From a virus, in the UHGV virus genome UHGV-1753993: a stretch of 25,078 nucleotides of DNA. The stretch is one strand, 5' to 3'. The position numbers and the translations under genes are program-made. Every line of letters begins with the position of its first letter. Position 1 is the first letter of the stretch. Positions 8,202 to 25,078 of this stretch are shown one piece after another. The notes beneath the pieces were generated by a model. The model saw nothing but the letters and a program-made list of their open reading frames with translations. It did not search any database and was not told the origin of the DNA.

Positions 8202-8816
8202 ATGAAACATACAACATATGGACTGGGCTACATCCAGTCACCTAAAGATGACAGAGACTTGCGCTTTGACGCAAAAACTGATTTGCCACTTGTGTACAAG
8301 TTGGCTCAACTTCAAGTAGAAGACCAAGGCAGTACATCAATGTGTGCAGCTTACACAGCAGCAACAATGATTGACTGGTGGTCTTCTGTGCTGTCTATGC
8401 AAGGCAAGCTTGACATCAAAGCATTGTATGAGCGTCGTTCAAATAAGCCTCAAGAGGGCATGATTCCGCGTGACGTCTTTAAGCTGCTCAAAGCACAGCC
8501 AATCAAGATGTCAAAGGGCTCAGAACAATCGCCGATAACTGCATACAGACGTTGCTACACAATTGATGAAGTCAAATCTGCTATTGTAGCAAATGGGCCT
8601 GTATTTGTTGGCATGCTCGTAAAAGACATTGAAGCTGAGCATTTCTGGAAAGGCGATGGCAATTTTGGTGGTCATGCAGTGTCAATTGTCGGCTATACAA
8701 AAGACTCATTCATCATCAAGAATAGCTGGGGTATATCTTGGGGTGATTCCGGCTACACTACAATGCCCTTTGAAGATTTTTCAGCAATCATTGAAGCTTG
8801 GACCATTTTGAGATGA
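8202..8816 (+). CDS. Papain-like (C1-family-like) cysteine peptidase
   Basis: Catalytic-triad signatures by eye: QGSTSMCAAYT (Cys), GGHAVSIVGY (His), NSWGISWGDSGY (Asn/Trp); no signal peptide. Confidence 0.65.
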   Translation: MKHTTYGLGYIQSPKDDRDLRFDAKTDLPLVYKLAQLQVEDQGSTSMCAAYTAATMIDWWSSVLSMQGKLDIKALYERRSNKPQEGMIPRDVFKLLKAQPIKMSKGSEQSPITAYRRCYTIDEVKSAIVANGPVFVGMLVKDIEAEHFWKGDGNFGGHAVSIVGYTKDSFIIKNSWGISWGDSGYTTMPFEDFSAIIEAWTILR

Positions 8817-9553
8817 GCAGAGAATCAGAATTGGCTGCAGCAAATGCAATATTGGATGCTGCAGAAGTAAGTGATGCATTAGAAGTCTATAAGCAGTTTG
8901 ACCGAAGCAAACTTGACAAGACACTTGACAAGTGTTCAAAATACGTTGACGAAGTTCGCAAATTGTGCATAGCAGCAGATGTTAAGTCGCCATTTATCGA
9001 TGCTTCAATTGAGATGGAGAAGACGAACATCAATTTGCTTTGCAAACAAGTGTTTTATGCAATGCATGCACTTGATTCAGTATTCGAGCGCATTGATGCA
9101 CAAGGCGGGGGCATGGGTGAGTTTGCGTTTCTCATCAAACTGCAGAATGATGCAATGTCGTTGGTTCAGCAGTATATATCATATTGTCGAACTCTTCCCA
9201 ATGTACTTGCGTCACTCAATAATAATGTTCGAGCAACTCAAGCAGAATTGCAACAAGGCTCTGGTCAATCTGAACAACAGTCAGGCATCAATGGTGAACT
9301 CGTAACTCGTTCAATCGTTGACCTCATCAAAATTGCAGAAAAGCATAACAGCACATTTGAGCAACTCAAAGATGACAATGATGACAATCCACAGCCATTG
9401 TTTGAAGCAGATGATGAAGTTGCAAAACTGCTTGGTGATGACGTAGAACGTTACACTGATGAAAAGACTTATGCTGAAACAATGAAAGCTGAGGGCAAAG
9501 AGTTCAATGCTGAAGCTGAGTTGGCCAAGCAAGCAAAACCTGAAGTGAAATGA
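8813..9553 (+). CDS. Hypothetical acidic protein
   Basis: Track ORF 8798-9553 starts at TTG; ATG at 8813 overlaps the upstream stop (ATGA). Confidence 0.6.
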   Translation: MSRESELAAANAILDAAEVSDALEVYKQFDRSKLDKTLDKCSKYVDEVRKLCIAADVKSPFIDASIEMEKTNINLLCKQVFYAMHALDSVFERIDAQGGGMGEFAFLIKLQNDAMSLVQQYISYCRTLPNVLASLNNNVRATQAELQQGSGQSEQQSGINGELVTRSIVDLIKIAEKHNSTFEQLKDDNDDNPQPLFEADDEVAKLLGDDVERYTDEKTYAETMKAEGKEFNAEAELAKQAKPEVK

Positions 9554-9572
9554 CAGTTGTAAGTTTATATGC

Positions 9573-10696
9573 ATGAGTCGCTACAAGCAAGATACGCCAT
9601 TAACTGGCGCAGCTATTGAGAAAAGAATTGCAGAACTTGAAGCTGAAAGAGATGAATTGTTAAGGGTGACAGAGAATGTTAGATTAGGCAAACATAAGAC
9701 AGCTCATAGTGAAATTGCACGAAAGTACAACTACAAAATTGGGTGCTTAAAAAAGTATGGGTTTGAAAATGCGATGAAATGCACTGCGCTAAAAAAATCA
9801 AGCAATCAATACCAGACGTGCAAATAATGACGTTGATGCAATGATTGCAAAAATGCAAGCAACAAACTTAAAACGTTATGGCCACGCAAATGGCAATGTA
9901 GAAAAAATTACTGCAACTAAAGTACAGCGATTTGGCAATGGCTATGGCAACAAAGCAAAGGCAATTGATACCAAAAAAACGTAAATATGGCAATGCATGG
10001 GGTGACCGCTCAAAAATCTGTGCAACAAATTTAGAACGTTATGGTTATGCAAATGGCAATGTTGCTAAAATGTGTAAAACTAAACGTGCACGATGGGGCA
10101 ACGCGTTTGGCAATTTGACTTTGATTCGTGAACGTTTAGCAGACTTGTATGGCGCTGTATGCCATTTTAGCGTGCGCTCAAAGTCAAAGCCATGTTCAAA
10201 GCTTGAGTTATTTGTGCATGATAAGATATTACATGCTCTTGGCATTAACTTTGAATATTCACATTTAATAGGTGGCAGATTGTATGATTTGCGATATAAT
10301 GACATAGTTATAGAAATTAGCCCAACAATATCGCACAATAGCACGTACAGTTTTGCATATCTAAATAATAGAACACATAATAATGTGCCAATGCATACGC
10401 ATTATCATTTTGATAAGACTCAACTTGCTCTCAAACATGGCTACATATGCATAACAATTTTTGACTGGCATAACTTAAACGACGTTGTGTCAATTGTTGG
10501 TATGCATTTAGCAAAGCTATCAATAAACTCAACAGACTTCGCACTCAATCCGCAGTTGTCAGATGACAAGTCAACAATTCGCAAACACTGGTGTCATTTG
10601 AAGACAAAAGAGCATATTGAAGACTGCGGACAAGATGAGCAAGAGATGATTGACGCTGGTTATGTTGCAGTGTACGATTGCGGTCATGCAAGATAA
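9573..10696 (+). CDS. Repeat-containing protein (five or more units of about 18 aa, T-x-[KL]-x-R-[YFW]-G-x-[AG]-x-G-[NV]), interrupted by +1 frame breaks at two A7 tracts
   Basis: Track ORFs 9573-9827 and 9932-10696 plus an unlisted 9841-9984 ORF; the amino-acid repeat continues across frames 0, 1 and 2, switching at A7 9791-9797 and A7 9973-9979. Confidence 0.5.
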
Positions 10697-10847: not shown

Positions 10848-11981
10848 ATGTCACAAATTGAAAATGGACAGACCAGCAATCAGCCTCTGTCAATCTTTGA
10901 TGTCCAGCCGGACAATGTAGCAAGCTTTGCTAAGCCGGAACGTTCTGCAGGACCCGAGTTCTTTAATCCTAAGCCGCAGGATTCGCCAAAGGACAAAGTT
11001 TATCGTGCAGTTATTCGCGTATTGCCGAATTTAGCAGACCCAGCAGTACCGATTTCAATCGTTCGTTATTACTGGTTTGCAACTGGCCATAATCAGGGCT
11101 TCCGCTACAATTCGCCGAGCTCGCCTAATCCGCATCCTGAAAATCCGGAAAATTTGATGAAACCCTACGGTTGGTGTCCCATTTCGGCATTCTACTGGGA
11201 ACTCATCAATACCAAGGATGCTCAGCAGGAAGCACTTGCAAAGCGAGAGTTCAGTATGCAGAGTCAGTACACTTGCCTCGTGCAAATCAAGGCTGATTCA
11301 GTGCACCCTGAGAACGTTGGGAAAGTACTCCCATATCGACTCCCTGCTGCATTGTATAAAAGAATGCTGAGCTCAATGAAGCCGACTGACGAAGACATCC
11401 AGATGGGCGCTCAGCCTATGGACATGTTCCATCCTGTTAAGGGCCATGACATTCTCTTGAAGATTACGCTTAAAGACGTCAATGGCGTTGAAATGCGTGA
11501 CTACGAGACTTCGACGATTTCGCCCAACGTATCGTCGATGCTGCTTGCAGATGGCAGCCTTGTTGACCAGGCGAAGTATGACACTGACCCTGCATACAAG
11601 CAGCAAATCATGCAGCAGATTGTCGACATGCTCAAGGAGTACCCGAATGTCGAAAAGGAGTGGGGCTACCACGAAGCTTCTGATGACATCAAGCGTCAGG
11701 TTAAGATGCGCCTTGCTAACTACAAGGATGTGTCGGATATCTGGCCTGACATTGTCATCAATCCGTCAGCAGCTCAGCAGGCACAGACTACTCAGCCTGC
11801 ACCAGCAGCAGCTCCGGCAGCTGCGCCTGCTACTGCACCAGCAGCTCAGACAGCCATTGACCCGTTTGCAGCAGCTTCAGCACCTGCAGCAGAGCCTGTA
11901 CCTGCAGCAGCTCCAGCAGCAGCGCCTACAGCAGCAACGATGGATGCTGAAACTGAAGCATTCATCAATGGGCTCAAGTAG
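10848..11981 (+). CDS. T4 gp32-like single-stranded DNA-binding protein with a Pro/Ala-rich C-terminal linker
   Basis: Matches to T4 gp32 recalled from memory (AVIRVLPN vs AVIRFLPS; ENVGKVLPYR vs ENEGKVFKYR); distinct codon usage and higher GC than neighbours. Confidence 0.75.
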   Translation: MSQIENGQTSNQPLSIFDVQPDNVASFAKPERSAGPEFFNPKPQDSPKDKVYRAVIRVLPNLADPAVPISIVRYYWFATGHNQGFRYNSPSSPNPHPENPENLMKPYGWCPISAFYWELINTKDAQQEALAKREFSMQSQYTCLVQIKADSVHPENVGKVLPYRLPAALYKRMLSSMKPTDEDIQMGAQPMDMFHPVKGHDILLKITLKDVNGVEMRDYETSTISPNVSSMLLADGSLVDQAKYDTDPAYKQQIMQQIVDMLKEYPNVEKEWGYHEASDDIKRQVKMRLANYKDVSDIWPDIVINPSAAQQAQTTQPAPAAAPAAAPATAPAAQTAIDPFAAASAPAAEPVPAAAPAAAPTAATMDAETEAFINGLK

Positions 11982-12003: not shown

Positions 12004-12041
12004 GAGGCTCAGACAGACATTGTTTGTCTGAGCCTCTTTTT
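12004..12041 (+). terminator. Intrinsic terminator: 12-bp stem GAGGCTCAGACA / TGTCTGAGCCTC, 9-nt loop, TTTTT
   Basis: Read directly; 23 nt after the SSB stop codon. Confidence 0.75.
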
Positions 12042-12059
12042 CATTTAACAAGTCATGTC

Positions 12060-13655
12060 ATGAGACTCAAAGTCATAGGCGATTTGCTTCAGATTGTCGA
12101 AGCAAATGATTTGGAAGCCAAGCAATTATACGCTGAAGCTACTGCAGAAGTGCCAAACTTTGTTGCAGCAGCAGTCAATAAGCGCAAAGGGCGCAAAACA
12201 GATTGGAATGGGCAAATTTGCTATGTGTTTAATGGCATATACCTACCATTTGGCTTATGGAAGCGTATTTGGGACTTACAACTGCGTAAGCCAATTCCAT
12301 ACGAAGTCAAGATTGAGGGCCTCATTGACAACTTTGACCGCATTGTGTCGCTTGAAGAGCTTGAGCAATGGTCAGAATGTCTTGATATGCCATTTGACAT
12401 GCGTGACGACCAGCTCAAGTTTATTTTGACTGCTTGCAAATTCAAGAAATGTTGTTTACGCCTTGCGACTTCTTATGGCAAAACAGCTCTTGTTTATGTA
12501 ATTAGTCGCTTCTTAAAAGATAGCAAGAGAATTAATGGCAAGACGCTTATGATTGTGCCCTCGGTGCATCTCGTGTCACAAGCGTTTGACGATATTGTTG
12601 TCAGCTATCAACAAAATGAGTCAGATTTAGCAAACAAGAACTACAAACTCTACAAAATCCATTCAGGTGTTCGCAATGAGTACAAAATGCAAGATGCAGA
12701 TATGGTTGTTGGCACGTATCAAAGTCTTGTCAACATGCCGGCAGATTTTTTCGAACAGTTTGACTTCATTGTAACTGATGAAGCTCATGGTGCGCCTGCA
12801 GCGTCAATTCGTGAAATCTTTAGTCATTGCACAAAAGCTCATTATCGTCTTGGCGTATCTGGTTCATTGCCGCTTGAACATACAGCAGCTCGTTTGACAA
12901 TTGAATCATACATTGGTCCAATACTGGGCACATTTGGCGTAGCTCAAGCACTTGAAAAGAACATTGTGTCTGACTTCGAAATCAAACGAGTAGTCATTGA
13001 GCATTCAGCAGAATATGATGCGCCGTTTGTGCAGTATCTTGAAGAGCATCCTGAAGTGTTTGATAACACTGCAAGACTGCTTCCAGCAGAACAACATCAT
13101 TGCATGAACTACGTCGATGCTAACAAGCTCATTGCAAAAATTATTTGTTCGCTTGACAAAAATGCTCTTGTGCTTTGCAAACGACGAGACCATGTGCAGA
13201 ACATCTATGATGCTTGTCAAACATTCATACAGCAGTCTGGTGTTGACAAGGTTGTTCACATCATTAGAGGTGATGTACCCTTGCATGAACGCAAAGACAT
13301 GCTTGCAATGATGGAAGCAGAGCCTGACAGACACATCATGATTGCAACAACTGGCACATTATCTACAGGTGTATCTGTGCATGCTTGGTTTTACGCTGCA
13401 TTCTTGATGATTGGCAAATCTGACAACGTAACATTGCAGTCAATTGGGCGACTGTTGCGTAAGCATCCACTTAAGCAGAAAGCAATCATTCTTGATATTG
13501 CGCATAAGCTTACAATTCATAGTGACACGCTTGTCAAGCTTCGCAAAGGCTACTGCTACTGCAATTATGATATGCAGCATTTTGCTGCTCGAAAACGAAT
13601 CTATGACGCTGAAAAGATGCCAGTAGATACAAATGTGCAAAAATTCAAGCTTTGA
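12060..13655 (+). CDS. uvsW: UvsW-like SF2 DNA helicase (Walker A TSYGKT, DEAH box VTDEAHG)
   Basis: Helicase motifs read directly; N-terminal W.G.I...LPFGL and later blocks (MIVPS..SQAFDDI, VVGTYQS, LGVSGSL, QSIGRLLRKH) match T4 UvsW as recalled; start re-set from track TTG 12024 to ATG 12060. Confidence 0.8.
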   Translation: MRLKVIGDLLQIVEANDLEAKQLYAEATAEVPNFVAAAVNKRKGRKTDWNGQICYVFNGIYLPFGLWKRIWDLQLRKPIPYEVKIEGLIDNFDRIVSLEELEQWSECLDMPFDMRDDQLKFILTACKFKKCCLRLATSYGKTALVYVISRFLKDSKRINGKTLMIVPSVHLVSQAFDDIVVSYQQNESDLANKNYKLYKIHSGVRNEYKMQDADMVVGTYQSLVNMPADFFEQFDFIVTDEAHGAPAASIREIFSHCTKAHYRLGVSGSLPLEHTAARLTIESYIGPILGTFGVAQALEKNIVSDFEIKRVVIEHSAEYDAPFVQYLEEHPEVFDNTARLLPAEQHHCMNYVDANKLIAKIICSLDKNALVLCKRRDHVQNIYDACQTFIQQSGVDKVVHIIRGDVPLHERKDMLAMMEAEPDRHIMIATTGTLSTGVSVHAWFYAAFLMIGKSDNVTLQSIGRLLRKHPLKQKAIILDIAHKLTIHSDTLVKLRKGYCYCNYDMQHFAARKRIYDAEKMPVDTNVQKFKL

Positions 13656-13796: not shown

Positions 13797-14150
13797 TTGC
13801 TTGTCACAAAGCGAATTCAAGCTGCAGCAAATGCAACACAACAGCCTGCAACAAAAGTTGATTTTGACAGAGCGTCAAATCAGTTTGGCTTAGCATTGAC
13901 TGAGCTGTACAAAGAGCAGGGCATCAAAGCAGTAGATTTCGTAGAACTTGATATCTATAAGCGCATCTTTGCAGCACAAATTGCAAAAGCAATGCGTGCT
14001 GAAGATGTTGACATAGTCAAGTCTGCAAAGAAGCTTGAGCGCATCATGCAGTATGACCTTAAAAAGCTCATCAACGTCAAAGACAAGAACATCAGCAAAG
14101 GCACTGCAAGATTGCTTGAAGCTGTTCTTGCTGCAGAAGATGATGAGTAA
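13797..14150 (+). CDS. Hypothetical protein; no canonical ATG near the 5' end (track start is TTG)
   Basis: Open frame 13764-14150; an in-frame ATG at 13710 is separated from it by a single TAG at 13761-13763. Confidence 0.4.
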   Translation: MLVTKRIQAAANATQQPATKVDFDRASNQFGLALTELYKEQGIKAVDFVELDIYKRIFAAQIAKAMRAEDVDIVKSAKKLERIMQYDLKKLINVKDKNISKGTARLLEAVLAAEDDE

Positions 14151-14194
14151 TGCAAATATACATATATTGTCAACAAACAAACATAAAAAAAGAT

Positions 14195-14512
14195 ATGCTG
14201 CAACTCAAACATAAAGCCGAAATGGCTCGAGCACTTGCAAACAATCCACTCGTTGTAGTGAAGTTCAGTGCGCCATGGTGTGTGCCGTGTCAAGGTTATG
14301 CGCCAATTTTCGAGTCAACTGAAAAGAAATTCAATGGCAAGGTGACATTTGCTGAAGTGAATGTTGAAGAGTGCGATGAACTTGATAGCACTCACAATGT
14401 TCGTTCAGTACCAACGACAATTATCTTTCGTGATTGCATTGAAGTTGGCCGTGCAACTGGTGCATTGTCAGCTATTGCACTTGAACAACTGATTGTCGAC
14501 AATATGCAATAA
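14195..14512 (+). CDS. Thioredoxin
   Basis: Active site WCVPC, cis-Pro loop VPT, about 105 aa; start re-set to ATG 14195 (track start 14150 lies in an AT-rich leader). Confidence 0.85.
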   Translation: MLQLKHKAEMARALANNPLVVVKFSAPWCVPCQGYAPIFESTEKKFNGKVTFAEVNVEECDELDSTHNVRSVPTTIIFRDCIEVGRATGALSAIALEQLIVDNMQ

Positions 14513-16528: not shown

Positions 16529-17074
16529 ATGGCAAAGAAAAATGCTGTTGCAGCAAAGCCTGCAACTGAACTCAAAGACATGACAATGGAGCAGCTGGAA
16601 GCACTCAAAAAGTCGCTCAGTGAAGCTCGAAAAGAACTCGAAGACAAATCGCAGTCAATGCAGATGATTGTCACGACTGATGGCGAATTGCTCAAGTTTG
16701 TTGCACGTAATGTGTGCGAACTTGTTTTGCCGCAACTTGAGTTTGATATGCGACTTATGCGTGATGTTGTCGCATTTGCTGCATGGGCTACGGACGCTGC
16801 AAAAGGACGACGCACCATGGGCATCTTCGAGTTCAAGTACATTGTTCGTGCTGTATCGACGACGAAGTTCAAGGGCGCTCAGGTTGCTGCAGCACTTGAT
16901 TCACTCAACAATCTGCTTGAGGCACCTGCAGCAGAAGTACAGAAGTTCGATGAGCAGTATCGTGAAAACGCCACTGCACTTGACGCATGCTTGCAGGAAA
17001 TTGACAAGCGCAAGCAAGCTGAGCTAGCTGAAAAGACTGCTGAAGCTGAATCGCAGGAAGCAGACGCAAACTAA
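16529..17074 (+). CDS. Hypothetical helical, acidic protein with G/C-ending codon usage
   Basis: Track ORF 16439-17074 re-set to ATG 16529 (MAKKNAVAAKPA); followed by a strong terminator. Confidence 0.6.
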   Translation: MAKKNAVAAKPATELKDMTMEQLEALKKSLSEARKELEDKSQSMQMIVTTDGELLKFVARNVCELVLPQLEFDMRLMRDVVAFAAWATDAAKGRRTMGIFEFKYIVRAVSTTKFKGAQVAAALDSLNNLLEAPAAEVQKFDEQYRENATALDACLQEIDKRKQAELAEKTAEAESQEADAN

Positions 17075-17119
17075 AATGACATTGACATAGTGTCATTGAT
17101 TTTAAGGGTTAGTAAAGTG

Positions 17120-17151
17120 CAAGCAGGCTGCAATTGCAGCCTGCTTGTTTT
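17120..17151 (+). terminator. Intrinsic terminator: 28-nt perfect palindrome CAAGCAGGCTGCAATTGCAGCCTGCTTG followed by TTTT
   Basis: Read directly. Confidence 0.75.
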
Positions 17152-17294: not shown

Positions 17295-18677
17295 ATGCAC
17301 AATGATTTGATTATAGCGCAATTAAATGCTTTGCAGCAGCAATATGAAATTGTGTTTGATGTTGATTGCATTGCATGGCTTCGAAACAGATGCTCAACAT
17401 TTATAGGCATTCCACTGCCATATAATGATTACGTTATTTGTGTGCATCCAATTGTGCGACAAACTGTCGTAGTTGACATAACAAATGCAACTGAACACGA
17501 GCTATTTGAATTGGAAGAGTACATTGCAATGATTCATGCATTGTTGCAATCATATGCACGACATCTGCATTCACAACGATGCAACACGGAGTTTGCTGCA
17601 GTAGATGCGCCCTATTCTGCAAAAACACATTTTGTGCCTGTAATACTTAAGCCTGCATATCCTGTACGAACACAAGACAAACCACGACAAGATAAGACAG
17701 ACATTCAAAGTAGAGAATGCTTTGCAATTGCTCGCATCATTGATGCAACAAAGCAGCATCAATACAAGGCGCATCTTATTGTAGATGATGCAGAAGTGCA
17801 TGACCCAAAACTTTTCGACAAAGATGTGCTATGCTGCTCAGTTGACTATGTGCAGCACTCAATTGACAAATATGGTGTGTTGTACATTGTATGCTCAGCA
17901 ATGAATGACTCGATGAGTCAGTCAGTCATCTACAAACAGCACAAGCAACTCATTGAATCATGGAAGGGCGACATTGTATGGCTATGGTATGATTTACGAC
18001 TCGTGCCGCACATTGCAAACTTTAGATTGCGCTGCAAAAAGATGACAGTTGTCACACAAGCACAGAACATGCATAATGCGTTGTCAATGCTGACAGAAAT
18101 CAATGTCAACACAATTCAGCATGCAAGACTGGAAGGCATTCCATTGTATGCATCACATAACGAAAAACGTTTAGCAAAATTGCAATCAGGCAAGTTGACT
18201 ACTGCAATGCCGATGGTTGCTTGGAATGACATGTGTGCTGAACGCAAACAAGAAGTCATTGATTTGCTTGGCTGCGCAGACATCGAAACTCATGTTGTCG
18301 GCAATATCGACATTGATATGCCACATGTCTATGATGGCACAATCAAGTATTTTGACATATTAACATACTTGTCGCAGTTCGACTTTGCATACATTGTGTG
18401 TGAAGAGAATATGAAACAATGCAACGCAATTACATTCAGAGCAACTGAATCAATGCTTGCAGGCTTGCCTTGTATGTACGTGAATAATTGTGTGTGTCCT
18501 GACTTTATCAAGTATCATAAAGTCGCACACATCAAAAATGCCAAGCATTGTGCAGAAGTCTTCAAGTCATTAAGTGTAGATGAACTTGATGAGCTTATGA
18601 CATTACAAGACAACTATCTCATTGAGTTGCATACAAACATTGTAACAGACTTTATCAAAATTATAAACTCACTGTAA
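17295..18677 (+). CDS. Hypothetical protein (460 aa); C-terminal region weakly resembles the GT-B glycosyltransferase nucleotide-sugar-binding motif
   Basis: Track ORF with ATG start; motif ..FRATESMLAGLPCMYV.. by eye only. Confidence 0.6.
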   Translation: MHNDLIIAQLNALQQQYEIVFDVDCIAWLRNRCSTFIGIPLPYNDYVICVHPIVRQTVVVDITNATEHELFELEEYIAMIHALLQSYARHLHSQRCNTEFAAVDAPYSAKTHFVPVILKPAYPVRTQDKPRQDKTDIQSRECFAIARIIDATKQHQYKAHLIVDDAEVHDPKLFDKDVLCCSVDYVQHSIDKYGVLYIVCSAMNDSMSQSVIYKQHKQLIESWKGDIVWLWYDLRLVPHIANFRLRCKKMTVVTQAQNMHNALSMLTEINVNTIQHARLEGIPLYASHNEKRLAKLQSGKLTTAMPMVAWNDMCAERKQEVIDLLGCADIETHVVGNIDIDMPHVYDGTIKYFDILTYLSQFDFAYIVCEENMKQCNAITFRATESMLAGLPCMYVNNCVCPDFIKYHKVAHIKNAKHCAEVFKSLSVDELDELMTLQDNYLIELHTNIVTDFIKIINSL

Positions 18678-18681
18678 GCAT

Positions 18682-19407
18682 ATGAAATGGCTAACTTGGT
18701 CTGAAACAAAGCGGTTTCAACGAAATCTCATATATCTTAAAATGGCTGAGCTTTGGTCATTAAATTCACATGCTCAGCGAGCAAAAGTTGGCGCATTGCT
18801 TGTAAAAGATGGTTGCATAATTTCAGATGGCTATAATGGCATGCCAACTGGTATGTCAAATTGTTGCGAACATGATACTTCAGCAGGCATCAAAACCAAC
18901 AAAGAAGTTTTGCATGCAGAATCAAACGCATTGATGAAGCTGTGCAAATATGGCAATGCGACCGCAAATGACGCAGTGCTGTATGTAACATACAGTCCAT
19001 GCATTGATTGCGCAAAGCTTATTTTGCAAGCAGGCGTTAAGCAAGTGCATTTTGTTGACTTGTATCATCACATAGATGGCTTGCGACTACTTAGTAGTGC
19101 TGGCATTGAGTTATATTGGTACCCAAGAAGCGCAGCAGATTATGAGGTTGCATGCAATCAAGTAGACTTTGATGATGCATTTCTTGCAAAGTGTGTCAAT
19201 ATCGTAGCAGTTAGTGACAATGTAGATGACATTGTGCATTGCAATTATGTGATATGCAATCTTGACGCAGCATTGTCATATGAGAAGATGCCAATGTATG
19301 ACACGTCATATGGTGTCATTGCAAATCACATCATAGATGAAGTACAATATCAACATGTAATAGATAATTGCAAAGCATATGAGCAAACTCTTCATTTTGA
19401 AATTTGA
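18682..19407 (+). CDS. dCMP deaminase-like (zinc-dependent cytidine/deoxycytidylate deaminase fold)
   Basis: Signature HAESNAL ... PCIDCAKLI read directly. Confidence 0.7.
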   Translation: MKWLTWSETKRFQRNLIYLKMAELWSLNSHAQRAKVGALLVKDGCIISDGYNGMPTGMSNCCEHDTSAGIKTNKEVLHAESNALMKLCKYGNATANDAVLYVTYSPCIDCAKLILQAGVKQVHFVDLYHHIDGLRLLSSAGIELYWYPRSAADYEVACNQVDFDDAFLAKCVNIVAVSDNVDDIVHCNYVICNLDAALSYEKMPMYDTSYGVIANHIIDEVQYQHVIDNCKAYEQTLHFEI

Positions 19408-20542
19408 CACATGTGTGCGTTCAGACATACAGCATCTTAAACATACAGAACCCATCGCATTTGCAGGGTTTGTGCAGACAATGTTTGATGCTGTGTATGT
19501 GTTTGGTGACCCTGAGAACAAACATGCAATACTTGATGAGCTTGTGCATGATAACGTGCATATCATCAATAACATACATGCATGGCAAGATATGCTGAAG
19601 TGCACAAAATCAGACGATTGCGCAATATTCTGGCAGGGCTCAAAGGCTGCTCTTGAACATTGCTCAGAATTTCAGCAAGATGTTCTGTGGAATGCATTCA
19701 AAGCATGGTGTTTGTCAAATGCTCGCAAATTTACGCTAACAACTGATTTGCGATTTGATTTTGACAAAGAGTGCACATTGACAAAGCGATTGCACAACTA
19801 CAAAGAGTACTTAGAATCACAAAAAGACAACATTACACATCTGTGTCAACATAAAAATCTCAAGTATGCTTGGCTTGATGAGTCTCAATGTGTGTTTGCA
19901 CCATTGCAAATCATTGCAGCAGTCAATGCATTGAAGCTTCAATATATAGAGCCAAGATTGCTTAAACGACAAGCAACAATGCAAAATGCAATTGAAGCTC
20001 ATGTGCGTAGCTTTGCTGACATAAAGCAGCAATATGCATGCTGTGCAAGTTGTGCAGGTTTCACATATCTTGACGAGTATCGTAGAAGCGTGATTGAACA
20101 ATTTGTCATACATATGCGTGATACATGTCTCATAACATCGTATATTGATGACACAATTTTGTCTGCGGTTAAATCAGCAGCACCAAACTTTACACTTAAA
20201 TACAAAGTCGCATATGACGCAATGCCTCATGTAATATCGAGGTCCGCGTACAATCTTGTAGTTGGTGATTCATTGTATGTGCAAGCAGGCTTGCTGCCAA
20301 ATCGATGGGTTGAAGGCGTACTTGCAAATTGCTGCAACATACTTGTAGATTATAAGCCAATTACCCTATTTGCTGACATTGTAGGCTTCGATGACTACGC
20401 GACATTTGCAACACTTAATAGCAAAACATGCGTACGCACTGCGCCCACAAATTTTGATGATTGCAAACAAGCACAGCAAAAAGCTCTTGCAGCAATGATT
20501 GTGCAGTGTTACACTATTCTTGAACAAACATTCAAATCATGA
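19379..20542 (+). CDS. Hypothetical protein (387 aa)
   Basis: Track ORF with ATG start; overlaps the upstream gene by 29 nt. Confidence 0.6.
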   Translation: MSKLFILKFDTCVRSDIQHLKHTEPIAFAGFVQTMFDAVYVFGDPENKHAILDELVHDNVHIINNIHAWQDMLKCTKSDDCAIFWQGSKAALEHCSEFQQDVLWNAFKAWCLSNARKFTLTTDLRFDFDKECTLTKRLHNYKEYLESQKDNITHLCQHKNLKYAWLDESQCVFAPLQIIAAVNALKLQYIEPRLLKRQATMQNAIEAHVRSFADIKQQYACCASCAGFTYLDEYRRSVIEQFVIHMRDTCLITSYIDDTILSAVKSAAPNFTLKYKVAYDAMPHVISRSAYNLVVGDSLYVQAGLLPNRWVEGVLANCCNILVDYKPITLFADIVGFDDYATFATLNSKTCVRTAPTNFDDCKQAQQKALAAMIVQCYTILEQTFKS

Positions 20543-22095
20543 GAACACATATAATTACTCAAACTGGCTACATAGACTTTTTCAATTCATTGACTTGGAA
20601 AAGTGCAGCAATGTTTGAACGAGCAAACAAAGATGACTTATTCATTGTGGTAGGCTTTGTGCCACAGATGAAAGATGTCGCAGATTGCTTGACTACATCA
20701 GGTCATCATGTCAAATATGTTGATGTGTCAGATTTTGCTCAATGTCGCATTGCTGACATTATGAAGCGTCTTGATATGTCAATGACATCTTGCAATATGA
20801 GCTACATTGCAACATTTAATATATTCAATGGCGCATGCAATTCATTTCAGCAGGCAGAACTTGATACATTTTCTGCATATTGCAAGACATTTGGTACTGC
20901 ATCAGTCAAACGTGATTTGCCGCTAATTGACGCAGCAGGCTCAGTCTACAAAGCACTCATGTATGTAGTGTATGAGATGCTGTCAGTCATTATGCAGTAC
21001 AATATTGCATTGAATGCTCGCAAGACTAATGACAAACAACAAGGCACAGTCATAAACAACTTTGTCGAAGACCCATTGCAGCACAAGCTCAATTACATTG
21101 ACTATCGCTATTCAGGACCATATGAAAGCGCATTTAGTGCATCAAAGATATTCAAAGTGCAACATTGGTACTTTCATGATTGCAATAATGTCAAAAAGCT
21201 TGGTCTTGAATACAATTCTGCATATGTATATGATGTTACAGCAGAACAAGATGCTATTGCATATTATGGATGGTGTCCATCACAGCAATACTGGTATTTG
21301 CATGGCAAAACTTGGAATGATATTGAAGTAACATTCGATGACAAGCGACTGAATTTTGTATTTGCATTGACAAATACTTGGCGAGACAAAACTGAACGCA
21401 CAGAACTCATCAACAAACTCATGCATCTGCACAATCAAGATGCAATTGACAAGGGTATTGTGTTCAGATTTTTCAGCAGAGATAAACAACAGCAGTCAAT
21501 GTCAGACAAGTTGCTGCCATATGACACATACCTTGAACTCATCAAGCATAGCAGATTCACATTGATTGTGCCGTCATATGATGCAAACTGTTTTAGTTTG
21601 CGTAGATTCTGTGAAAGCATTGTGCTTGGCTGTGTTCCACTTGTGCACAACTCATGCAAACTCTATATGTTTGACAGATGGCCACAGTTCAAACAGTTTG
21701 TCATTAAGAAGCTCATGATTAGCGATGATGACTTGCAGCATCTTGAAGACATTGTTCAGCCATATAGACATACACAATTGTTAAAAGAGTTGTGGCACAC
21801 TGATTTCATTCAGCAATATACGGGTGACTTTGTGTATGATATTGCATTGCATCTTGCATATATCAATAAAGATGTGCCAATCAAGAAGTCTTGTGACAAT
21901 TGCGACAATACACTTTCACATGAGCGCTGTGTAATTTGTGAAGCAAACAACTTTATGAGTCATGCATGGTCATGTTCATATTGCAAGTTCTGCAAGTCTG
22001 ATATGTCATGCGCACTTGATGCAGACGATGGCTCAGCCGCATGTTGCAATGGTGACAGCTTTGTGTTGAAAGAGCCATTCGTAGAAGTGCAATGA
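20539..22095 (+). CDS. Putative glycosyltransferase (exostosin/GT47-like motif) with Cys-rich C-terminal tail
   Basis: Motif YDTYLELIKHSRFTLIVPSYDANCFSLRRFCESIVLGCVPLV resembles the F[CT]LxP.G...R..E.L..GC[IV]P signature; C-terminal CDNCDN..CVIC..CSYCKFC cluster; ATGA overlap at start. Confidence 0.6.
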   Translation: MRTHIITQTGYIDFFNSLTWKSAAMFERANKDDLFIVVGFVPQMKDVADCLTTSGHHVKYVDVSDFAQCRIADIMKRLDMSMTSCNMSYIATFNIFNGACNSFQQAELDTFSAYCKTFGTASVKRDLPLIDAAGSVYKALMYVVYEMLSVIMQYNIALNARKTNDKQQGTVINNFVEDPLQHKLNYIDYRYSGPYESAFSASKIFKVQHWYFHDCNNVKKLGLEYNSAYVYDVTAEQDAIAYYGWCPSQQYWYLHGKTWNDIEVTFDDKRLNFVFALTNTWRDKTERTELINKLMHLHNQDAIDKGIVFRFFSRDKQQQSMSDKLLPYDTYLELIKHSRFTLIVPSYDANCFSLRRFCESIVLGCVPLVHNSCKLYMFDRWPQFKQFVIKKLMISDDDLQHLEDIVQPYRHTQLLKELWHTDFIQQYTGDFVYDIALHLAYINKDVPIKKSCDNCDNTLSHERCVICEANNFMSHAWSCSYCKFCKSDMSCALDADDGSAACCNGDSFVLKEPFVEVQ

Positions 22096-22140
22096 GCATA
22101 ACTACGTTGTACTGTAATCAAAAATCAAACATAATACACA

Positions 22141-22713
22141 ATGATAGCGATATTTGAAGGTGTAGAAGCTTCAGGCAAAACAACACTCATCAATGAATTG
22201 ATGAAGTGGCGCCCATGGTTTATCAATTGCAAACGAACATCTCGTTCTTGGTGGCAGCAGCATGAGTCAGGTGATGACCCAATGCCCGAACCTTGGGACC
22301 TCAATGAAGCGTTCTTTTATGATTGGCGCTTCTTCTTAGAGTTCATTGGAAATGACTCTCAAGGCTTTGGCAAAGCAACATTTTTGTGTGACCGTTCGTT
22401 CATCACACATCAAATCTTCAACACAACGCTTTACAAAGAGTTGCACACTGATAAGCATCAAGCATTCTTTGAAGCATATGAAAAGAAGCTTGCAACATTG
22501 CCGCACGTAGTGTTCTTATGCAAGCGTGATGTTGTGCCAGATTTTGTTGATAACTTTTGCGGTGATGTCAACATTGATGTCAGCAAACGCAATGAAATGA
22601 TTGCTGCATATGATGAGTGGCGAAAGAACTCACCATTGCATATTGTCGAAATCGACAACAATGCAAGTCTGCAAGACAATGTGCTAAAATGCTTAGCTGA
22701 ACTTGGTGCATGA
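22141..22713 (+). CDS. P-loop nucleoside-monophosphate kinase, thymidylate-kinase-like
   Basis: Walker A EGVEASGKTT at the N-terminus and a DRS motif (LCDRSF) by eye. Confidence 0.6.
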   Translation: MIAIFEGVEASGKTTLINELMKWRPWFINCKRTSRSWWQQHESGDDPMPEPWDLNEAFFYDWRFFLEFIGNDSQGFGKATFLCDRSFITHQIFNTTLYKELHTDKHQAFFEAYEKKLATLPHVVFLCKRDVVPDFVDNFCGDVNIDVSKRNEMIAAYDEWRKNSPLHIVEIDNNASLQDNVLKCLAELGA

Positions 22714-22925
22714 GTAGAGTAACACCACAGCAATTACAAATGATGACAGACAAGCATGTCGCGTCATCAGTCATATTGCATACAATTGAATCTGCGTTAG
22801 CTTGCGACATCAAAGCAAAACTCGTAGATATCTTGAAGCTTAACAATGTCGAAGCGTATCTTATTGAAGACATTATAGATGAATGCTTTGACAAAGATTT
22901 GATTGCCTCAGACTGTGCAAAATGA
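22710..22925 (+). CDS. Small acidic hypothetical protein (71 aa)
   Basis: Track ORF; ATGA overlap with the upstream gene. Confidence 0.5.
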   Translation: MSRVTPQQLQMMTDKHVASSVILHTIESALACDIKAKLVDILKLNNVEAYLIEDIIDECFDKDLIASDCAK

Positions 22926-22932
22926 CAATGTA

Positions 22933-22943
22933 TGTTGTACAAT
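22933..22943 (+). promoter_or_regulatory. TGTTGTACAAT motif copy
   Basis: Exact 11-mer identical to 17202-17212 and 17255-17265. Confidence 0.35.
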
Positions 22944-22998
22944 ATCAACATATAAAATCCATCCTTTATCCAAGCTTTACAAAGCAAGAAACCTGCCA

Positions 22999-23050
22999 GA
23001 TGGCTGCTGCACATGATTTCACAAAATGTAGCAGCAGCCATCATTTTTTT
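22999..23050 (+). terminator. Intrinsic terminator: 12-bp stem GATGGCTGCTGC / GCAGCAGCCATC with T7 tail
   Basis: Read directly. Confidence 0.6.
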
Positions 23051-23058
23051 GACTCAAG

Positions 23059-23196
23059 ATGAGACGAGACAAGTACCATAAGCTTAACATACCTGATAAG
23101 TGGAATACTGAATCAGATTACACTGCATCAATAGTCATATATGCAATTATGGCTGCACTTGCAGTAGCATTTGCTTTGTGTGTAGATATGATATAA
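23059..23196 (+). CDS. Small single-pass membrane protein (45 aa), not in ORF track
   Basis: Manual translation MRRDKYHKLNIPDKWNTESDYTASIVIYAIMAALAVAFALCVDMI; follows a terminator. Confidence 0.3.
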   Translation: MRRDKYHKLNIPDKWNTESDYTASIVIYAIMAALAVAFALCVDMI

Positions 23197-23202
23197 CGTT
23201 AT

Positions 23203-23934
23203 ATGTGTATGAAAGCACAATCAAATATCAAAAGCGGCATAGATGCACTTAGTAAAGTGCGTGTAGCCAACACATCTATTGTCAATAAACACTGGTATGA
23301 CAAGCTTAGCAATTCTATTGCAGACTTTCTGACAAGTGTGTTGCTCATTATGATTGTGACTATCACATTTCTTATTGGCATCACTACGCATATTTATGCA
23401 GTATTTGGTGACTATTGGCTTGCGATAGGCTATCAATTCGTGGTGTTGCTTACGTCAGTCAACTCTGATTTGTTGCCAAAATACAAGAACATTCCACTGA
23501 TTGCAGTGTTTATGTCATGCTTTACATGCGTGTTCGTGTTTTTGAGCTTTGATGGTCACTTATCAACTGGCATCATGCTTCTTGTCAATGCATTGAAGTC
23601 ACTTGCCATAGCACTTGTCGAATTCATCTTTGCGTATTTGTTCGTAGCTCGTAACAATCGCACAAAAGCAGAACAAGCAGGCATTCAGTTTGACTTTGAG
23701 GGCAATGTCATTGAGCTGCATGCACAACAAGATGCTGCACAAGTTGAAGACACCGAAGTGTTACCAGCAGACAATGAGCCTATACATGTTGAAGAAGAGC
23801 AGCCAACTGTAATCGAACCAGTTTGGCAGCCAAAACGCTGTCATTGTGGTTTTGTTGCAGACTCTGAAGATGCTTGGAATGACCACATTGCTAACTGCGA
23901 TGTCTACAAATTTTTTGAATCATCTGCAAAATGA
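23203..23934 (+). CDS. Multi-pass membrane protein (about 4 TM) with acidic, Cys/His-containing C-terminal domain
   Basis: Track ORF with ATG start; hydrophobic segments by eye; C-terminal C-x-C ... H ... C. Confidence 0.65.
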   Translation: MCMKAQSNIKSGIDALSKVRVANTSIVNKHWYDKLSNSIADFLTSVLLIMIVTITFLIGITTHIYAVFGDYWLAIGYQFVVLLTSVNSDLLPKYKNIPLIAVFMSCFTCVFVFLSFDGHLSTGIMLLVNALKSLAIALVEFIFAYLFVARNNRTKAEQAGIQFDFEGNVIELHAQQDAAQVEDTEVLPADNEPIHVEEEQPTVIEPVWQPKRCHCGFVADSEDAWNDHIANCDVYKFFESSAK

Positions 23935-25078
23935 GGCTCTTCATACACAAGCTTGATTGCATAATCGACCCATACTCAAACAACTTGGTATCACAAGAAC
24001 CCGTGCTGTTTGCAAAAGCACTTGTGTCATTTCCAGAGTCTCCGTTCAGTCAAGTCATTCTTATTGCAAATCAACGAAAGCATCTTGCAAGCATCAATGG
24101 GCATGACATCATTGCTGCAACAGTAGAAGACATATTGAGTTTGCAATTCAACATCTGTTCAAATGATGTTTGGATTTTGTGGGGCGGCTGGATTGATTTG
24201 CTAAATATGCTGCCTCGACCTCAAGCAGAAACAGTTGTTAAGCTGCATGCTATGTGGCGAATGTCTACTGCAGCAAGAATGACAATTTGTACTGACATGC
24301 GATTCCCATTTAAGCGTGTCAACTTTGTGCATGCAGGCAGAGTTGAGCTACATGGCGTGTATGATGAGCCAGTACTTGAACTTAGCCAGTGCATGAATTT
24401 GTCAAATGAGCATTCAGTGTTCAACAATGTCAAATGGCTGCCATTGTTTATGCTGCCAACATACAGCAATGTTGCGATAGAGCCTCGTCATATTGGCGCA
24501 AAAACAGTAGACTTGATATATGCTACAAGAGATTGGCATATGCTATCTGACAGTCGCATAAACAAAGTCATTCGATACTATGTAGATTCAGGTTGTCGCT
24601 CAAGTTTTCTTGGTGAGCACAAACATACAGGCAACTTGACAAGTAGATTGTCTGATGCACAAACGCAACTACTACAGTCAAATTGCTCATTTGATTTTAG
24701 TGTGCCATTCTATAGTGTGCCATATGCAATGTCATATGCAGCAGCACACATTGCTATCGGTGACCAACAATATGAGCAATATGGGTTGATACCAAATCGT
24801 GTTGGTGAAGCAATTGTTGCACGAATTGCGACTTTTGTTGATTGCGCAGTTGACAAAGACAGACGATTATTTGCAGATGATGCGTATTTGAGCAAAGTGT
24901 CATATGTGCATTCTGCAGAACAAGTACAGCAACGCATTGCAGCATTCAAACAGCACCCAGACATTTATGCAGCATTTTGTGAACGACAAGCAGCATATTT
25001 GAAAACTCGATATGACATTGCAAAGCACTTTTTTGCAGTGACATACGACTTCATAAATAAACACAAACATCAACATAA
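23931..25078 (+). CDS. Hypothetical protein, 3'-partial (at least 382 aa; runs off the window end); absent from ORF track
   Basis: Manual translation from ATG 23931 (ATGA overlap with upstream stop) shows no stop codon through 25078; the listed minus-strand ORFs here are antisense to it. Confidence 0.6.
   Translation, partial: MRLFIHKLDCIIDPYSNNLVSQEPVLFAKALVSFPESPFSQVILIANQRKHLASINGHDIIAATVEDILSLQFNICSNDVWILWGGWIDLLNMLPRPQAETVVKLHAMWRMSTAARMTICTDMRFPFKRVNFVHAGRVELHGVYDEPVLELSQCMNLSNEHSVFNNVKWLPLFMLPTYSNVAIEPRHIGAKTVDLIYATRDWHMLSDSRINKVIRYYVDSGCRSSFLGEHKHTGNLTSRLSDAQTQLLQSNCSFDFSVPFYSVPYAMSYAAAHIAIGDQQYEQYGLIPNRVGEAIVARIATFVDCAVDKDRRLFADDAYLSKVSYVHSAEQVQQRIAAFKQHPDIYAAFCERQAAYLKTRYDIAKHFFAVTYDFINKHKHQH

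Follow-up and report, generated by a model that had tools for sequence, protein, structure and literature searches.

The 25,078 nucleotides of virus genome UHGV-1753993 analysed here (the window) end in a block of eight + strand open reading frames (ORFs), running from position 17295 to the last nucleotide, in which three relatives of the T4 DNA beta-glucosyltransferase (BGT), an exostosin/GT47-like glycosyltransferase (GT), a dCMP deaminase and a thymidylate-kinase-like protein are predicted (Table 1). We consider it likely that the cluster serves a cytosine hypermodification pathway in the style of T4, of which it would encode the post-replicative half and some of the nucleotide half. The source of the window is a phage, which encodes a papain-like peptidase as well as the gp32-like single-stranded DNA-binding protein (SSB), UvsW-like SF2 helicase and thioredoxin that form, together with a Mre11-Rad50 fusion, a second helicase and ThyA, the gene setting of the cluster.

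The initial annotation had placed the eight frames at these same positions and described them as tightly packed, with overlapping starts and stops. This holds: the junctions are, in order, +4, -29, -4, +45, -4, +277 and -4 nt. A strong hairpin with a T-run lies between the upstream gene, which ends at 17074, and the gene at 17295, so that the block probably starts a transcription unit, with the hairpin as its boundary. In a megablast search, 50,697 phage records gave no match to the region, and the UvsW-like helicase is at most ~31% identical to the helicase of any sequenced phage. The genes past the window end were read from two ~175-kb IMG/VR contigs (3300045988_149023 and 3300045988_152288), both 95-96% identical to the window and collinear with it over ~10.4-25.1 kb; the portion of the genome examined was 58 kb of 175 kb.

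Table 1. Predicted features of the cluster and of its surroundings
Feature	Length	Position	Strand	Basis or remark
BGT-N, T4 DNA beta-glucosyltransferase-like (GT63-like)	460 aa	17295..18677	+	family profile
dCMP deaminase	241 aa	18682..19407	+	PF00383, PHROG 174, zinc motifs
BGT-A, T4 DNA beta-glucosyltransferase-like	387 aa	19379..20542	+	family profile, paralogue of 23931
GT47-A, exostosin/GT47-like GT-B glycosyltransferase	518 aa	20539..22095	+	
P-loop nucleotide kinase, thymidylate-kinase-like	190 aa	22141..22713	+	TMPK-type P-loop, DRS motif
Small acidic protein, pI 4.7	71 aa	22710..22925	+	
Membrane protein	243 aa	23203..23934	+	hydrophobic segments within residues 35-151
BGT-B, T4 DNA beta-glucosyltransferase-like	391 aa (full)	23931..25078 (window end)	+	PHROG, family profile
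GT47-B, second GT47-like gene	412 aa	just past window end, near-identical contigs		start overlaps BGT-B end
Mre11/SbcD-like + Rad50/SbcC-like single chain	1308 aa	L001 16244-20170, ~1.1 kb past window end		
Divergent thymidylate synthase homologue	293 aa	L005 12654-13535 (contig 3300045988_149023), ~7.1 kb past window end		Pfam 3.7e-24
Canonical ThyA	352 aa	downstream contig		Pfam 4.3e-76
Terminator-like hairpin		17119..17148	+	13-bp stem, 8 G-C pairs, then T-run
Papain-like peptidase		8202-8816		
gp32-like SSB		10848-11981		
UvsW-like SF2 helicase		12024-13655		
Thioredoxin		14150-14512		

Three divergent homologues of T4 DNA beta-glucosyltransferase

Searched as single sequences against the PDB, neither the four large proteins nor the kinase gave anything significant, and for the BGT-like genes only family profiles matched. 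The protein at 17295 (BGT-N), initially described as GT-B-like, alone found nothing in Pfam, PHROG, NCBIfam or PDB, and tblastn against phage records gave no match. An exhaustive HMMER search brought its family to 12 members, and the profile of this family (A3) matched the PDB entry 1BGT at E 1.2e-10, over BGT residues 44-338. The profile of the family of 19379 (BGT-A) and 23931 (BGT-B), built from six sequences (A1), matched 1BGT at E 8.8e-8, over BGT residues 95-334. For both profiles, the T4 enzyme was the sole significant match among 177,635 distinct PDB sequences, and within a 20-kb stretch of T4, b-gt alone was picked out by both. By hhalign, A3 aligned to T4 b-gt with 95.8% probability (E 6.6e-9), and the two families aligned to each other with 97.8% probability.

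The proteins at 19379 and 23931 had been put forward as possible novel enzymes. They match each other by BLASTP at E 9e-16 with 24% identity, and 23931 also matches PHROG 7922, a beta-glucosyltransferase family, at E 1.2e-8; we therefore identify them as paralogous BGT-like transferases and not as new enzyme types. The gene at 23931 had further been described as a large unknown running off the window. It does extend past the end, but 382 of its 391 codons are within the window, as read from the near-identical contig L001, and its product now has a BGT-like identity. Taken together, 17295, 19379 and 23931 are assigned as divergent homologues of T4 DNA beta-glucosyltransferase, with a mutual identity of only ~20-25%.

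In T4 BGT, Asp100 is the catalytic base, and Arg195, Arg269 and Glu272 bind UDP. The columns matching these four residues (Asp100 within TDIRLPF) are invariant in both families. The invariant residues of 17295 are E141, D233 (in YDLRL), R235, R317, R382 and E385; the corresponding motifs are TDLRFDF (residues 122-128, with D123) and LPNRWVEG (306-313) in 19379, and TDMRFPF (121-127, with D122) and IPNRVGEA (287-294, with R290 and E293) in 23931. Shorter relatives of 17295 (346-386 aa) begin near its residue 120, so that its first ~115 residues constitute an N-terminal extension. The BGT-B family has a conserved C-terminal HNCDxCP knuckle; BGT-B itself ends in HKHQHNCDICPCKL, which is kept across the family (L001 14560-14600).

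To our knowledge, DNA is the only known substrate of the T4 DNA beta-glucosyltransferase family. DNA is favoured as the target here because three genes of the cluster belong to this family. The initial annotation had held a role in surface glycans to be equally possible, which for the BGT-like genes is clearly less likely. That the whole block would be a cassette for modification of surface glycans or host polysaccharides, merely placed beside nucleotide genes, appears very improbable. Several glycosyltransferases in series, and the BACON carbohydrate-binding domains found in upstream proteins, would fit such a cassette, but three of the transferases are related specifically to T4 BGT and keep its catalytic residues, the transferases are interleaved with a deaminase and a kinase inside a replication module, a hydroxymethylase is encoded nearby, and no flippase, polymerase, lipid-carrier or nucleoside diphosphate (NDP)-sugar genes accompany them.

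Two GT47-like partners

The GT47-A start overlaps the BGT-A stop (ATGA). Its product contains the nucleotide-sugar motif FTLIVPSYDANCFSLRRFCESIVLGCVPLV (residues 340-369), common to all family members examined (among them GT47-B and those of Pseudoalteromonas phage vB_Psh_XG4 and Vibrio phage pv27); the GT47 consensus of this C-terminal motif reads F.L.P.G/Y...S.R..E....GC.P. Its homologues are few, and carry precomputed PF03016 matches marked 'weak'. The Cys-rich tail (residues 441-518, nt 21859-22092), with 10 Cys and three CxxC in 78 residues, looks like a zinc finger. Cys/His-rich C-terminal knuckles are seen on three proteins of the cluster, namely GT47-A, the membrane protein and BGT-B, and the cluster proteins are generally Cys-rich (2-4.6%).

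Past the window end, GT47-B matches the GT47-A family by hhalign at E 7e-47. As this paralogue overlaps the stop of 23931, the locus comprises two BGT-like/GT47-like pairs with overlapping frames, plus a third BGT-like gene. The members of each pair, 19379/20539 and 23931/GT47-B, are probably translationally coupled, and the arrangement suggests that a two-gene unit was duplicated long ago; we infer that each pair is also coupled in function.

Other identities were considered for the GT47-like proteins. Matches of GT47-A to a sialyltransferase (PM0188) were non-significant (E 0.01-0.07), and the reading of these proteins as diverged BGT paralogues was rejected, as hhalign of profile A4 against A3 reached only 30% probability. 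A fold search of BFVD with the GT47-A model returned only low-TM generic GT-B matches.

The GT47-like family recurs in the cultured phage XG4 (E 2e-14). There, the gene is flanked by a second GT and by a C5 cytosine methylase, and a dCMP hydroxymethylase of T4 type and a bifunctional nucleotidyltransferase/kinase are encoded 3.4 kb upstream of it. The XG4 record is unannotated; we read its genes (L018 100-6580) as dCMP hydroxymethylase, HAD-like ORF, nucleotidyltransferase/APH-kinase fusion, GT, GT47-like GT and C5 methylase, an apparent cytosine sugar-hypermodification cluster. The first 7 kb of this record resemble the present locus by these genes (T4-type dCMP hydroxymethylase, nucleotidyltransferase/kinase, GT and GT47-like GT), but no BGT-like gene was seen in the 15 kb examined. 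In Vibrio phage pv27, the genes around the GT47-like one were uninformative. In the literature searched, no link of exostosin/GT47 enzymes to phage DNA modification was found, and neither "GT47" nor "exostosin" occurs in a metavirome study of DNA glycosyltransferases (Pyle et al., 10.1101/2023.12.21.572611).

For the two GT47-like genes, a role away from DNA is the less probable option: we judge it rather unlikely that only the BGT-like enzymes act on DNA and that the GT47-like ones, perhaps with the membrane protein, glycosylate virion proteins or host envelope glycans. The exostosin-like protein A075L of chlorovirus PBCV-1 acts on a capsid glycan. However, each GT47-like gene here begins before the BGT-like frame preceding it has ended, and this pairing is conserved; signal peptides and transmembrane segments are absent from the GT47-like proteins, and the tail described above is zinc-finger-like. 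Moreover, the minimal module of a more distant metagenomic relative (L020) consists of a BGT-N-like gene, deaminase, GT47-like gene and kinase, and the XG4 member of the family sits within a cluster of dCMP hydroxymethylase, NDP-sugar, GT and C5 methylase genes.

A predicted cytosine-type hydroxymethylase beyond the window

It had been suggested to look outside the window for a hydroxymethylase resembling thymidylate synthase (TS), and one was found ~7.1 kb downstream. In the near-identical contig, the window is followed by a small membrane protein, the Mre11-Rad50 fusion, a 364-aa protein, the divergent TS homologue, a DinG/XPD-like helicase, canonical ThyA and an RNase T-like exonuclease. 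The Mre11- and Rad50-like proteins are separate in T4 (gp47 and gp46), whereas here they form one fused polypeptide. The 364-aa ORF before the hydroxymethylase does not resemble a GT, and neither Pfam nor PHROG gave a match for it.

In the PDB, the divergent TS homologue is closest to the CMP hydroxymethylase MilA (E 1.5e-22), and also matches T4 gp42 (E 8e-12). Its best thymidylate-synthase match is 1NJC, which has Asp at the position of E. coli ThyA Asn177 and which is the N229D mutant of the L. casei enzyme. The homologue was aligned with T4 gp42, RB69 gp48 and E. coli ThyA. In E. coli ThyA numbering, N177D denotes cytosine specificity and L143D/E a non-methyl product, and D169N is the mark of flavin-dependent 5-hydroxy-dCMP synthases (Lee et al., NAR 2026, PMC13326640). 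The divergent homologue has L143D and N177D and retains D169, so that the predicted base is 5-hydroxymethylcytosine (5hmC). Its motif MRSNDVIWGFCND compares with MRSNDVVFGFRND of T4 gp42, and RSNDVxxGFxND matches T4 gp42. The D169N change of the 5-hydroxy-dCMP synthases is absent from it, the residue being Asp (RSND) as in T4 gp42, while the control, RB69 gp48, has Asn in this column. The second TS, canonical ThyA, keeps L143, D169 and N177, as expected of a true thymidylate synthase.

The same pathway logic might apply to another acceptor, either 5-hydroxycytosine (5hoC), as in RB69, Acinetobacter phage DLP3 and Rhizobium phage RL38J1, or 5-hydroxymethyluracil (hmU). MilA is likewise the best PDB match of the 5-hydroxy-dCMP synthases of these three phages, whose clusters, described as poly-glycosylated cytosine clusters (Lee et al., NAR 2026, PMC13326640), also place a thymidylate kinase (TMPK)-like 'nucleotide kinase' beside the GTs, and the kinase profile weakly matches RB69 gp45 (E 5e-6). 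The dCMP deaminase could in addition feed a route based on dUMP, and the D169N rule derives from one study. Yet the homologue has Asp at D169, where all tested 5hoC synthases have Asn (PMC13326640), its Asp at N177 makes it cytosine-specific, which goes against hmU, its Asp at L143 is of the hydroxymethyl type, and a separate canonical ThyA accounts for the deaminase. Another base is thus unlikely in our view.

Sphingomonas phage PAU, the DNA of which is reported to be extensively modified (PMC7824862), is a further point in favour of another base, as it combines BGT-like genes with a D169N-type TS. Its tandem genes gp179 and gp180 are BGT-like, with E values of 3e-16 and 1.5e-23 against the two BGT-like profiles, and nearby lie genes for TMPK, gp32, UvsW, a TS homologue and dTDP-sugars. 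PAU gp182 (L015 11177-11881), annotated as thymidylate synthase, has L143E, D169N and N177D. Given this 5-hydroxy-dCMP synthase signature and the BGT-like and dTDP-sugar neighbours, PAU may carry glycosylated 5-hydroxycytosine. Over gp171-gp187, PAU resembles the present locus in having a GT, TMPK, gp32, UvsW, tandem BGT-like genes and a TS homologue; it differs in its D169N-type TS, its dTDP-sugar genes and the absence of a GT47-like match.

Deaminase and kinase

The protein at 18682, initially annotated as a dCMP deaminase, matches PF00383 with 75.5 bits (cut-off 25) and PHROG 174 at E 1e-44, and has the zinc motifs HAE (at residue 78) and PCxxC (PCIDC, at residue 106). By these motifs and profiles, it qualifies as a bona fide dCMP deaminase. 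A C-terminal extension of ~90 residues (~150-241) has no family match, and the deaminases of the relatives are of similar length or longer (243-275 aa).

The reading of 22141 as a P-loop dNMP kinase stood in part. A TMPK-type P-loop, FEGVEASGKTT (FEGxExSGKTT), and a DRS motif are present, but all profile matches are sub-threshold (AAA_28, 2e-3; Thymidylate_kin, 0.02; PHROG 761, 9e-6, P-loop only), and a family profile built from three sequences had no match in the PDB. This profile matches the 'thymidylate kinase' of Chryseobacterium phage MA9V-2 at E 1e-31, a gene that overlaps the TS homologue of that phage. The latter is the best phage match to the divergent TS homologue, at 44% identity, and has the same signature. 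Because of this link to the same TS subfamily in MA9V-2, the TMPK-like kinase may be a functional analogue of T4 gp1. The candidate role of 5-hmU DNA kinase, or hmU as the base, was rejected, as the TS homologue bears the cytosine-specifying Asp.

Conservation of the cluster in metagenomic relatives

Synteny of the block extends to three metagenomic relatives that are more divergent (L013, L014 and L020), with gp32 and UvsW proteins only 54-80% identical, and the order BGT-like, deaminase, (BGT-like), GT47-like, kinase is kept in L013, L014, L020 and L017. L013 and L014 keep gp32, UvsW, thioredoxin, four unknowns, BGT-N, deaminase, BGT-A, GT47-A and kinase. In L013, a 4.6-kb insertion follows, after which the membrane protein, BGT-B and GT47-B are retained. 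Such a gene order, kept in divergent relatives, makes the cluster more than a chance assembly. For two distant family members, P0017 and P0021, the contigs were too short to show a gene context. Identity of gp32 is 80% in L014 and 62% in L013. In the latter, the GTs are 28-43% identical, as compared to 54% for UvsW and 62% for gp32, a stronger divergence that is compatible with, though no proof of, diversification in an arms race.

Comparison with known systems

In T4, cytosine hypermodification involves the dCMP hydroxymethylase gp42, the kinase gp1, the dCTPase gp56, which serves to exclude dCTP, the deaminase cd, and the alpha- and beta-glucosyltransferases. The present phage, to which T4 is only distantly related, shares with it a dCMP deaminase, a hydroxymethylase homologous to TS whose active-site signature is the same, DNA glycosyltransferases of the BGT family with conserved catalytic Asp and UDP-binding Arg/Glu, the location of the genes within a replication/nucleotide region, and the presence of more than one DNA GT per genome. 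Here, however, there are three BGT-like paralogues and two GT47-like enzymes but no alpha-glucosyltransferase, the kinase is TMPK-like and not gp1-like, and no gp56-like dCTPase occurs in the 58 kb. The strategy is a known one, and the differences lie in how many BGT-family paralogues there are and how far they have diverged, in the two GT47-like partners, in the use of a TMPK-like kinase instead of gp1, and in the conserved two-gene duplication.

The RB69, DLP3 and RL38J1 clusters are alike in that a TS homologue and a TMPK-like 'nucleotide kinase' are accompanied by two or three GT-B glycosyltransferases, which build mono- to tri-saccharides on cytosine C5 (PMC13326640). They differ in using a D169N flavin-dependent 5-hydroxy-dCMP synthase, GT4-like transferases and their own NDP-sugar synthesis genes, whereas the present TS homologue retains D169, the GTs belong to the BGT-like and GT47-like families, and genes for sugar activation were not seen. 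In metaviromic 5hmC clusters, BGT-like GT-Bs add mono-, di- and tri-saccharides to 5hmC (Pyle et al., bioRxiv 10.1101/2023.12.21.572611); the same survey found that GT-B contigs are often associated with ThyS, links between BGT-like genes and ThyS being common. The clusters tested in that work were MT/TET-dependent, with 5hmC made post-replicatively, unlike the pre-replicative route proposed here.

Proposed pathway

Hypermodification of DNA bases, which the initial annotation had proposed, is supported by BGT-family membership, the hydroxymethylase downstream and the context of replication and nucleotide genes. Our preferred reading, which we hold with some confidence, is that 5hm-dCTP would be made before replication, and that the DNA would then be glycosylated by the three BGT-like enzymes, with extension by the two GT47-like ones. 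The TS homologue would convert dCMP to 5-hydroxymethyl-dCMP, which the TMPK-like kinase, as the proposed dNMP kinase, would phosphorylate; host NDP kinase would complete 5hm-dCTP, and the phage polymerase would incorporate it. The deaminase, probably in a role like that of T4 cd, would supply dUMP to the separate canonical ThyA for dTMP synthesis. In the DNA, the products of 17295, 19379 and 23931 would flip out 5hmC and, with a UDP-sugar as donor, glycosylate its hydroxymethyl group, the conserved Asp (D233, D123 and D122, respectively) acting as base and the conserved Arg/Glu pair holding UDP. The two GT47-like GT-Bs, each probably coupled to a BGT-like gene, would add further sugars. The product would be a di- or oligosaccharide, or a mixture of glycoforms, and would protect the DNA from restriction enzymes and other defences that target DNA. 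Substrates, sugars, order of action, pairing and biological effect are all inferred.

Several points weigh against this pathway. The phage is uncultured, and what the sequences show is the homology, the conservation of catalytic residues, the synteny and the signature of the TS homologue. The hydroxymethylase was found in the 95-96% identical contigs, outside the window itself. As PAU has BGT-like genes beside a D169N-type TS, the BGT-like family has no exclusive tie to 5hmC. An AF2 model of 17295 from a two-sequence alignment had a pLDDT of 34, too low to use, which leaves the GT-B fold of this protein putative. For 20539, initially called exostosin/GT47-like with a Cys-rich tail, the tail and the motif are present, but the PF03016 match, which covers the C-terminal domain only, scores 25.3 bits (E 1.2e-5), below the gathering score of 33.4, and its structural match to GT47 depends on a mediocre AF2 model (seven-sequence alignment, pLDDT 57). 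The kinase is weakly assigned, and no gp1-type dNMP kinase was among the kinase matches in Pfam, PHROGs and NCBIfam, no direct comparison with gp1 having been made. With phmmer, T4 gp56 found no dCTPase in the 58 kb, where no gp1-type kinase was seen either; complete replacement of cytosine is therefore unproven. Finally, no genes for NDP-sugar synthesis or sugar activation were seen nearby.

A more elaborate outcome can be envisaged, which we offer as a tentative possibility only: the two probably coupled BGT-like/GT47-like pairs and the third BGT-like enzyme might build a long or branched chain of at least three sugars on 5hmC, possibly with alternating sugars as made by exostosin co-polymerases. 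If so, this would be the first exostosin/GT47 fold in DNA glycan synthesis, and the most complex enzymatic set for DNA glycosylation in one phage.

Sugar-coated DNA is among the main phage ways past restriction, CRISPR and other DNA-targeting defences, and DNA-glycosylating enzymes serve as tools, for instance T4 BGT in 5hmC mapping. The clade of the present phage provides three very divergent BGT-family enzymes, whose specificities for the sugar, the anomer or the sequence context are probably different. The clade also provides members of an exostosin-like family for which the literature searched gave no earlier link to DNA modification and which recurs in cultured Pseudoalteromonas and Vibrio phages; if these enzymes extend DNA glycans, the known chemistry of DNA glycans would be widened, and new reagents would become available. 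The cluster is moreover a test case for the published signature rules of TS homologues, 5hmC versus 5hoC.

Small proteins, flanking sequences and host

The small acidic protein encoded after the kinase is only partly conserved in L014. The membrane protein has no significant family match in Pfam or PHROG; its hydrophobic part is followed by an acidic linker and a C-terminal CxC...H...C motif (RCHC...H..C, window 23824-23931), and its gene adjoins BGT-B in L013 too.

Collinearity with the IMG/VR contigs is interrupted at window 9554-10403, while 9358-9554 and 10403 onward align, which suggests an indel or a replaced segment between strains. At 2669-2833, amid short unannotatable ORFs, ~5 tandem copies of a 28-nt unit, TTGAGTTTTGATGCAAGATGCAAAACTT, are present, and could be an iteron/origin-like or regulatory repeat. 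The C-terminus of the gp32-like SSB (especially 11795-11936) is an Ala/Pro-rich low-complexity tail, PAPAAAPAAAPATAPAA..., which accounts for a local GC peak of 0.51 and for a TRF match. The outer flanks (L009 and L011) are unannotatable and probably contain structural genes, the exception being BACON domains in large upstream proteins (L011 4055-8383 and 9113-9727).

The gene leaders inspected are A-rich, without Shine-Dalgarno-like sequence, and the best TS and kinase matches come from Chryseobacterium phages. These two features and the BACON domains are host clues that point toward Bacteroidota, and the phage, a distant T4-like one, probably infects this group.

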